Made by a program: the position numbers. Below, piece by piece: positions 42,401-44,471 of a stretch of DNA of 64,000 nt. Positions within the stretch are counted from its first letter, which is position 1, and each line of letters opens with the position of its first letter. Location: NCBI RefSeq assembly GCF_017348835.2, contig NZ_CP071375.1; one strand, 5' to 3'. The DNA comes from Escherichia coli (lineage in GTDB: Bacteria > Pseudomonadota > Gammaproteobacteria > Enterobacterales > Enterobacteriaceae).

Positions 42401-44471
42401 GTCGGTCAGTGGTTGATGGTGCTGACGCTTTCAGCCGTTACCGGCGGGGCGATAGGCCTGTTGTTCGAAAACGTGTTGATGGTGCTGCTCAAGCCCGTTC
42501 TGCCTGCTGCACTACCGCCAGCCAGCCTCTGGCCGTGGCTATGGGCGCTGGGCACCATGACGGTCATCTCGCTGCTGGTGGGGCTACGACCATACCGCTT
42601 GTTGCTGGCAACGCAGCCTTTACGCGTATTACGTAATGATGTGGTAGCGAACGTCTGGCCGCTGAAGTTTTATCTGCCGATTGTCAGTGTGGTGGTTGTG
42701 CTGCTGCTCGCCGGATTAATGGGGGGCAGTATGCTGCTCTGGGCGGTGCTGGCGGGCGCGGTAGTACTGGCTTTGCTATGCGGTGTGCTGGGCTGGATGC
42801 TGCTGAATGTACTTCGCCGCATGACGCTGAAATCGCTGCCTCTGCGCCTGGCGGTTAGCCGCCTGTTACGTCAGCCGTGGTCAACGTTAAGCCAGCTTTC
42901 GGCATTTTCGCTCTCCTTTATGCTGCTGGCACTGCTGCTGGTGTTGCGTGGCGATCTGCTCGACCGCTGGCAGCAGCAGCTACCTCCAGAAAGCCCGAAC
43001 TACTTTTTAATTAACATCGCCACAGAACAGGTAGCACCGCTAAAAGCGTTCCTCGCGGAACATCAGATAGTCCCGGAATCGTTTTATCCGGTGGTGCGGG
43101 CGAGACTGACGGCGATTAACGGCAAGCCGACAGAAGGCAATGAAGATGAGGCGCTCAATCGCGAACTCAATCTTACCTGGCAAAATACGCGGCCCGATCA
43201 TAATCCGATTGTCGCCGGTAACTGGCCGCCAAAAGCCGATGAAGTGTCGATGGAAGAGGGGCTGGCGAAACGCTTAAACGTTGCCCTCGGTGATACCGTG
43301 ACTTTTATGGGCGATACCCAGGAGTTCCGCGCTAAAGTGACCAGCCTGCGCAAAGTGGACTGGGAAAGTCTGCGGCCTAATTTCTATTTTATTTTCCCTG
43401 AAGGGGCATTAGACGGGCAACCGCAGAGCTGGCTTACCAGTTTCCGCTGGGAGAATGGCAACGGCATGTTGACGAAACTCAACCGCCAGTTCCCTACCAT
43501 TAGCCTGTTAGACATTGGCGCGATTTTAAAACAGGTCGGTCAGGTGCTGGAGCAGGTAAGTCGGGCGCTGGAGGTGATGGTGGTGCTGGTCACCGCCTGC
43601 GGTATGTTGCTGTTGCTGGCACAGGTGCAGGTGGGAATGCGTCAGCGTCATCAGGAGCTGGTGGTGTGGCGCACACTCGGTGCGGGGAAAAAACTGCTGC
43701 GTACCACGTTGTGGTGTGAGTTCGCCATGCTTGGGTTTGTTTCCGGCCTGGTGGCCGCAATTGGTGCGGAAACGGCACTGGCAGTGTTGCAGGCGAAAGT
43801 GTTTGATTTTCCGTGGGAGCCAGACTGGCGATTGTGGATTGTTCTGCCGTGCAGCGGTGCGCTGCTGCTGTCGCTTTTCGGCGGCTGGCTGGGTGCGCGA
43901 CTGGTTAAGGGTAAGGCGCTGTTCAGGCAGTTTGCGGGGTGATGACAGGTGTTAGATTGCCTGATGCGCTACGCTTATCAGGCCTACGAAGAGCGTGCAA
44001 TATATTGATTTTGCAAGATTGTGTAGGCCAGATAAGGCGTTTACGCCGCATCCGGCATGAACAGTGTGCATTTTGGCAATAAATCTGAAACCAACTGTCA
44101 TGTCGGTTTTTTTAAAGGCCGAAGGTGGTAAACCTTCGGCCTTAGCTACGTTTCCTCAGTTATTCAATAAACTGACGGATCAGTTCCAGCAGCGCGATTA
44201 GCGCCTTAAGAACGATGAGAACTTTATCGAGAAAAGTTTTCATCCGTTGCTCCCTTAAGGGAGAAAGACAATCACAGCTTACCCTTACGTTGCCTGTAAC
44301 TATGATTTTCTTCATGTGCTAGATGAGGAATGTTTCATTTCTGCCCGGAACCACCAAGTCTTGGGCGGAAAAAATAAAAAAACCGACTGTCATGTCGGTT
44401 TTTTTATATCTGTATTCTGGTGCAACCATTCTGTTCTCACGACAATCGCCGTTTCAGAATACCGCCCATCA

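Follow-up and report, generated by a model that had tools for sequence, protein, structure and literature searches.

What occupies the spacer between ybbP and mnmH in an Escherichia coli strain that lacks the RhsD element found there in K-12? We addressed this question in a 64,000-nt stretch of contig NZ_CP071375.1 (assembly GCF_017348835.2), referred to here as the window, in which ybbP (plus strand) ends at 43942 and the stop codon of mnmH (minus strand) lies at 44469. The spacer of 526 bp, which a preliminary description had put at about 525 bp, very likely holds, beside repetitive extragenic palindromic (REP) elements, a DinQ/AgrB-family (dql) module of type I toxin-antitoxin genes, present here as a probably silent relic with a 185-bp deletion. 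The preliminary description had recognized the REP elements, two near-identical hairpin motifs about 290 bp apart, and, between them, a 27-codon minus-strand open reading frame (ORF) with a Shine-Dalgarno (SD) sequence, all of which we recovered (Table 1). It had missed both the gene for an AgrB-like small RNA (sRNA) and the deletion that removed the promoters.

The identity of the ORF product is given by a curated family model. The peptide is small and hydrophobic, and its start codon is correctly spaced from a GGGAG SD sequence located 6 nt ahead of the ATG. It scores 40.9 bits against the NCBIfam hidden Markov model NF041472, "toxin_DinQ" (cutoff, 30 bits), which bears out the earlier impression that it resembles a type I toxin; K-12 DinQ and a Photorhabdus homolog, run as controls, score 54 and 51 bits. 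Against the DqlB model NF041473 it reaches 24.5 bits, below the cutoff of 35, and a Pfam scan of the peptide gave no match. When the two sequences are compared by reading, identity to K-12 DinQ is about 70% over 24 residues. The ORF had been thought to be unannotated; in RefSeq, however, the Prokaryotic Genome Annotation Pipeline (PGAP) calls it dinQ (WP_349808740.1) in every locus-bearing genome inspected. Public protein collections hold the 27-amino-acid protein and an in-frame 51-amino-acid version on more than 1000 contigs each, formerly as "hypothetical" and now as DinQ. The 51-codon extension (MKKIIVTGNVRV..., 44160-44315, minus strand) is annotated as DinQ in many records. The upstream part of this extension falls outside the family model and is unconserved in other genera, which favors the 27-codon form as the actual product; by analogy with DinQ, its peptide would be toxic.

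The preliminary description had called for a search for an antisense sRNA, and that search was successful: a full-length match to the Rfam AgrB family (52.6 bits against a gathering threshold of 40) lies upstream of the toxin gene, on the opposite strand and divergent from it. Elsewhere, in Escherichia albertii, Pantoea, Photorhabdus, and Leminorella, Rfam AgrB matches likewise adjoin DinQ-family toxins, always in divergent orientation. Both genes in the window end in rho-independent terminators. The stem of the toxin terminator recurs in the Photorhabdus, Leminorella, and Pantoea loci, and hairpin 2 aligns to the terminator stem of the AgrB model. As a palindrome flanked by A and T runs, with predicted stabilities of -17.5 and -16.4 kcal/mol on the two strands, hairpin 2 should act as a terminator in both directions and thus also end the mnmH transcript. 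Upstream of the toxin ORF, the palindrome that would sequester the SD sequence aligns with K-12 CUCCAUCGCAUGGAG.

Table 1. Features of the ybbP-mnmH spacer, in positions of the 64,000-nt window
Feature	Position	Strand	Basis and remarks
REP/bacterial interspersed mosaic elements (BIME)	43943..44070		Directly after the ybbP stop codon
Toxin-antitoxin module	44071..44454		Extent taken from the indel that separates the window from strain M1/5, whose allele has REP elements only; left edge ambiguous between 44071 and 44096
Hairpin 1, a 27-nt sRNA-terminator copy (one A/G difference)	44088..44114		Directly 3' of the toxin terminator
Putative intrinsic terminator of the toxin mRNA, GGCCGAAGG/CCTTCGGCC stem	44115..44143	-	-20.7 kcal/mol; collinear with the K-12 dinQ terminator
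Intact 27-codon ORF of the DinQ family of type I toxins, MKTFLDKVLIVLKALIALLELIRQFIE	44160..44243	-	NCBIfam NF041472; RefSeq dinQ
Palindrome CUCCCUUAAGGGAG	44247..44266	-	Predicted to pair the SD sequence (GGGAG, plus-strand positions 44250-44254) with an anti-SD; counterpart of dinQ leader elements 3:4
Deletion junction, one fused copy (TGCTAGATGAGGAATG) of the 16-nt repeat	44317..44332		Long-form alignments
AgrB-family antitoxin sRNA body	44319..44407	+	Rfam RF02891, matched over the whole model at 52.6 bits (gathering 40); promoter missing in the window
Hairpin 2, perfect 14-bp palindrome between A and T runs	44374..44407		Putative bidirectional intrinsic terminator of the sRNA (+) and mnmH (-)

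Comparison with other genomes revealed what the window lacks. Most locus-bearing genomes, for example those of O145:H28 RM13514 and Escherichia sp. E1V33, carry 185 bp more than the window. This long form is collinear with K-12 dinQ-agrA through the toxin terminator, ORF, SD hairpin, leader, divergent promoters, sRNA, and sRNA terminator, and the window is without exactly the middle of that alignment. The long form contains TGCTAGATGAGGACTG twice, 185 bp apart, once in the toxin leader and once at the sRNA 5' end. The single copy in the window has the left flank of copy 1 and the right flank of copy 2, which is the signature of a repeat-to-repeat deletion. Recombination or slippage between the two 16-nt repeats probably deleted the intervening 185 bp, and with them the promoters of both genes as well as leader elements 1 and 2; the toxin ORF, the SD hairpin, the sRNA body, and all terminators were spared. 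We mapped the K-12 dinQ transcription start from the element coordinates published in PMC5066626 (U16-C28, G94-G106, and SD G184-G187), all of which reproduce on the sequence, and its position falls inside the segment deleted from the window. Since the two repeat copies are fused, the sRNA has no separate leader target left.

The deleted form is rare. Among 5426 complete E. coli genomes, the module is present in 1325, once per genome and never on a plasmid, and the promoter segment of the common long form is present in 1321. The window-type junction occurs in four (PE164, F2_81, O157:H16 Res13-Lact-PEA12-26, and GF3-3), which represent three flanking haplotypes. The window differs from F2_81 by 2 single-nucleotide polymorphisms (SNPs) in 5.7 kb; Res13 lies 83 SNPs from the window and 38 from the long-form strain ATCC 8739, and GF3-3 is separated by about 70 SNPs from each of the other E. 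coli haplotypes in the comparison. The occurrence on three haplotypes indicates that the deletion either recurred or moved by recombination. GF3-3 is further marked as a separate haplotype by a ybbP-toxin interval that is longer by about 200 bp, probably owing to additional REP units (extracted locus, ~2457-2875).

How would the intact form work? By analogy with dinQ, a toxin mRNA with a long structured leader, encoding the 27-amino-acid membrane peptide, would be transcribed leftward, and an AgrB-like sRNA would be transcribed rightward, divergent from the toxin. The 5' end of the sRNA would pair with the leader and keep the SD sequence locked in its local hairpin. Complementarity between two divergently transcribed RNAs means that the DNA contains the pairing sequence twice, as a direct repeat. 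The long-form sRNA scores 53.6 bits against RF02891 and is preceded by a near-consensus promoter (TTGAAT-17-TATAAT). Its pairing with the leader is predicted to comprise 16 Watson-Crick pairs, or 20 continuous pairs when G-U is included, across GGAGAGAGGCAG, which corresponds to leader element 2.

All four elements of the dinQ leader switch are recognizable in the long form, and just two of them, 3 and 4, remain in the window. Elements 2 and 3 correspond to GGAGAGAGGCA and to its complement UGUCUUUCUCC, located immediately upstream of the SD sequence, and ACUGCCUC near the leader 5' end is complementary to element 2, which identifies it as element 1. The 5'-end pairing, GCUAG/CUAGC, covaries with K-12 GUUAG/CUAAC. 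In predicted folds, the full leader forms 1:2 and 3:4, the 5'-truncated leader forms 2:3, and the leader remaining in the window forms 3:4, with the SD closed. As far as such models go, the pairing in the long-form leader fits the published dinQ switch.

With both promoters gone, the SD sequence in the 3:4 hairpin, and a strong terminator toward mnmH, we consider the window's copy to be silent; judged from its sequence, it is probably a transcriptionally silent and harmless relic. A scan of the spacer returned no promoter-like site above threshold on either strand.

Several points weigh against parts of this account. The long-form toxin promoter (TTCAAA-15-TACAAT) is a call by homology, its -10 element TACAAT being taken from the Photorhabdus and K-12 alignment, and it went unflagged in the promoter scan. 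The predicted duplex between the first 36 nt of the sRNA and the long-form leader (-47.7 kcal/mol) lies between those of the functional AgrB-dinQ pair (-59.9) and the nonfunctional AgrA (-44.4), so that the competence of the long form's antitoxin is uncertain. The minimum free energy folds are qualitative and reproduce the published switch only in part, the SD being mostly paired in all constructs, the K-12 +44 control among them. In the deleted allele, read-through from mnmH could yield some toxin mRNA, and a weak promoter-like site, TTACCC-16-TATGAT (44279-44306, plus strand; 8/12 matches, sub-threshold), about 6 nt upstream of the sRNA body, could give residual sRNA. Finally, a single deletion that spread by recombination, instead of several independent ones, could account for the three haplotypes.

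Read-through and the weak promoter-like site, taken further, lead to the alternative that the window's copy is still a working pair, in which the toxin would be expressed by mnmH read-through or from a cryptic promoter, the sRNA would start at the TTACCC-16-TATGAT site, close to its natural 5' end, and the 16-nt segment would act as a cis-antisense overlap. The intact ORF, SD sequence, sRNA body, and terminators are all compatible with this idea, as is the persistence of the allele on three haplotypes. We nevertheless regard it as improbable. No site on either strand reaches the promoter-scan threshold, and hairpin 2, 14 bp followed by a T run, stands as a strong terminator between mnmH and the toxin. 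Moreover, the deletion took leader element 2, which in the dinQ model is needed with element 3 to free the SD sequence, the predicted fold has the SD hairpin closed, and the allele is very rare, at 4 of 1325 carriers.

The probable relic in the window is one of several states of the locus. A REP-only allele of the M1/5 type occurs in 456 of the 5426 genomes. A decay allele commoner than the one in the window, a 108-bp deletion running from GATGAGAACT in the ORF to GATGAGGACT in the sRNA target, affects about 191 genomes, an estimate obtained by subtracting 1134 from the 1325 carriers and not by a search for its junction. Seen in strain 118UI, it corresponds to window positions 44224-44331 plus the long-form target (extracted locus, 740-830). 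Start codon, SD hairpin, and sRNA target are lost from this allele, which keeps the sRNA gene with its promoter, so that the antitoxin is orphaned; PGAP still calls the 25-codon remnant dinQ, with an ATT start. In NZ_OW967178.1 the module stops partway through the promoter segment and the mnmH side does not adjoin it, which suggests an insertion or rearrangement within the locus.

The module is also less diverged than its surroundings. Between lineages it differs by 0.5 to 1% (44071-44454), compared with 2 to 5.8% for the flanking genes ybbP, mnmH, and allS; relative to Escherichia sp. E1V33, 4 of 565 positions differ, compared with 3.1 to 5.7% in the same three genes. Such low divergence points to strong constraint or to recent spread by recombination. 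Relatives with about 70% DNA identity are found on 1636 plasmid records; at high identity, a search for plasmid copies returned only three, all of them mislabeled chromosomes. A phage origin was considered and rejected, there being no match among 50,697 phage records. Among species-representative genomes, the ybbP-linked subtype was found only in Escherichia, and one such genome also has the canonical, gor-linked dinQ.

The low divergence is compatible with recent spread, and the hairpins might be the target-site duplications or terminal repeats of a small mobile insertion, or else ordinary REP variants. The twin motif indeed brackets most of the module as a direct repeat: its two 27-nt copies, at 44088-44114 and 44380-44406, agree at 26/27 positions with a spacing of 292 bp. 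The left arm of hairpin 1 coincides in part with a REP-associated tail known from other loci; the module, moreover, is 4 to 8 times less diverged than the flanking genes. These readings are nonetheless very improbable. Compared with the REP-only allele, the indel contains both copies, which excludes a target-site duplication, and hairpin 2 corresponds to the AgrB terminator in the Rfam alignment. Each carrier genome has a single module, hairpin 2 included, and none was found at high identity on plasmids or phages, whereas the REP part (43940-44092) has 9 to 46 matching places in nearly every E. coli genome. A scan of metagenome contigs found no donor-type junction, in which an sRNA terminator would abut the toxin terminator.

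The two hairpins, described earlier as a matched pair, are in fact unequal, hairpin 2 being the sRNA terminator and hairpin 1 a weaker, partial copy of it that overlaps a REP tail. Hairpin 1 is weak on the plus strand, where it has an A-C mismatch (-6.3 kcal/mol), and is fully paired on the minus strand by means of a G-U pair (-8.5 kcal/mol). Its first 9 nt resemble the REP tail of the artJ-rlmC and hemN-yshB loci, and its remaining 18 nt (44097-44114) are common only to hairpin 2, far beyond chance. We found no hairpin of this sRNA-terminator type 3' of the toxin in the other DinQ-family loci compared. The idea that hairpin 1 is the remnant of a tandem module, or a chimera formed on incoming DNA, was rejected, as no E. 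coli genome has two copies, no such copy exists in the other DinQ-family loci, and the metagenome scan gave no donor-type junction. From its position, hairpin 1 is a possible back-up terminator of the toxin mRNA or of ybbP.

As for the Rhs element, the preliminary description was correct that K-12 carries RhsD and associated genes between ybbP and mnmH (rhsD-ybbC-ylbH-ybbD-ylbI-ylbG). Foreign DNA fills the K-12 interval completely, from immediately behind the ybbP stop codon up to that of mnmH, replacing the whole spacer. A K-12-type Rhs flank adjoins ybbP in 2889 to 2907 of the 5426 genomes (~53%) and is missing from about 47%; the RhsD-less state is thus ordinary. That the spacer is an Rhs deletion scar or an empty attachment site, with the ORF and hairpins incidental to it, is hardly credible even with RhsD between the same genes in K-12 and its flank so common, because blastn of the spacer against the 7.3-kb K-12 insert yields only chance words, tblastn with RhsD finds nothing across the whole window, the ORF and the sRNA both pass curated family thresholds, the whole module is collinear with dinQ-agrA, and a REP-only allele exists as well.

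The spacer is thus better understood by comparison with known type I systems. The K-12 dinQ-agrA-agrB locus was described by Weel-Sneve (2013, PMC3567139) and Kristiansen (2016, PMC5066626), and the function of DinQ and AgrB was tested experimentally in both studies; these also defined the dinQ/agrB and dql family (2013 to 2016), which is catalogued in T1TAdb (PMC8594479). For the DqlB/agrB pair of plasmid pOXA-48, the trans-acting agrB antitoxin works by base pairing, as supported by compensatory mutations (PMC12365149). It is for these two pairs, K-12 DinQ/AgrB and pOXA-48 DqlB/agrB, that toxicity of the peptide and its rescue by the sRNA have been demonstrated (PMC3567139; PMC12365149). Like K-12 dinQ-agrA, the long form at ybbP-mnmH combines a terminator, a 27-amino-acid hydrophobic peptide, an SD-sequestering hairpin, a four-element leader, and divergent promoters with an AgrB-type sRNA whose terminator has the ACCGAC/GTCGGT stem, and the peptide core ALIALLELIR is identical in DinQ. 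Unlike K-12 dinQ, which lies in the gor-arsR spacer, it occupies another chromosomal site, and its peptide has three more residues at the N terminus and three fewer at the C terminus. It has one sRNA gene instead of two, 16 nt of perfect complementarity rather than about 32, an extra terminator copy (hairpin 1), and, even in the long form, no LexA box; in the window, both promoters are deleted in addition. The best LexA candidate in the long form was unconvincing, with 5/6 core and 11/20 consensus positions, compared with 6/6 and 15/20 for the K-12 control, so that the "damage-inducible" name is unsupported for this paralogue; the window lacks this region altogether.

The locus shares family membership, defined by leader similarity and signature residues, with the dqlA and dqlB genes of Enterobacteriaceae chromosomes and plasmids. 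Its peptide, however, passes the DinQ cutoff and not that of DqlB, and, unlike plasmid-borne dql, it is chromosomal and restricted to Escherichia in the collections searched. A literature search with the exact peptide and with dinQ plus ybbP found no paper that names the locus, which could be among the 14 dql genes of Kristiansen 2016. We therefore regard it as a new, or at least undescribed, member of a family whose existence and mechanism are already known; what is modestly new is the route of its deletion.

In shoB-ohsC, tisB-istR-1, and zorO-orzO, whose toxin peptides and sRNAs are unrelated to those described here, the sRNA gene is likewise upstream of the toxin gene and divergent from it. 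Since any sRNA that is encoded divergently and pairs in trans must have a direct repeat in common with its target, we built the deletion junctions predicted for other loci and searched for them with synthetic queries (110 nt for dinQ-agrB and a 35-nt junction-only query for shoB-ohsC). At the canonical dinQ-agrB locus in the gor-arsR spacer, 3 of the 5426 genomes (strains including FORC_082 and PEC389) match the 110-nt junction exactly and in one piece. The deletion there spans 430 bp, from the AgrB target to the agrB 5' end, with loss of the dinQ promoter, the LexA box, agrA, and the agrB promoter. In K-12, shoB-ohsC contains a 19-nt perfect direct repeat, its copies 248 bp apart (extracted locus, 774 and 1022), and the predicted junction is present in 53 of the 5426 genomes; in strain M8, the gap between shoB and acpS is 172 bp rather than 421 bp. 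Shore et al. (2024) reported approximately 1% "interrupted" shoB/ohsC loci, with no mechanism given in the main text. tisB-istR carries its pairing sequence as a 21-nt repeat with one mismatch, and in the junction search joined two-piece matches outranked any single-piece match.

The same type of repeat-to-repeat junction is therefore found at three loci, unrelated or paralogous: the dql module at ybbP-mnmH (4 genomes on 3 haplotypes), dinQ-agrB (3 genomes), and shoB-ohsC (53 genomes). We propose, leaning only slightly toward this generalization, that in type I pairs with divergent genes and a trans-pairing sRNA the direct-repeat pairing sequence brackets both promoters, that a single deletion can thereby silence toxin and antitoxin together as a built-in "safe exit," and that the window is one instance of a recurrent process. 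Losing both promoters in one step would avoid the lethal loss of the antitoxin alone. We found no statement of such a mechanism in the literature searched.

These observations bear on how type I loci are counted. The PGAP label dinQ is misleading at this locus, because it has no LexA box and the AgrB-like antitoxin gene goes unannotated. Numbers of toxin genes per strain are used in studies of persistence and pathotype, and such counts would wrongly score as functional the ~14% of carriers (the estimated 191) whose start codon is deleted, together with the four promoter-less genomes. The window, in turn, illustrates how a chromosomal type I pair may be lost without killing the cell: the short repeat through which the antitoxin would pair with its target could also serve as a substrate for the precise deletion of both promoters, a modest and testable addition to what is known of locus decay.

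Two observations concern the neighborhood of the module and its leader. The module, of about 384 bp, follows the REP elements in the spacer, whose REP part contains an inverted repeat (43974-43987/44023-44036) and gives sub-threshold matches to the REP-derived Rfam families ES036 and naRNA4. The sequence at 44071-44096, ttttggcaataaatctgaaaccaact, resembles the tails that follow REP units at artJ-rlmC and hemN-yshB, and because the left arm of hairpin 1 overlaps this REP-associated tail, the left boundary of the module is ambiguous. The K-12 tisAB leader (extracted locus, ~880-925) holds AAGTCCTGGCTGAAACGGGTGGTGCC, near-identical to a block, AAGTCCTGG...ACGGGTGGTGCC, that is conserved in the leaders of the DinQ family. 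A resemblance of this kind between zor and dinQ leaders was noted by Shore et al. (2024), and a leader module may be shared across type I families.

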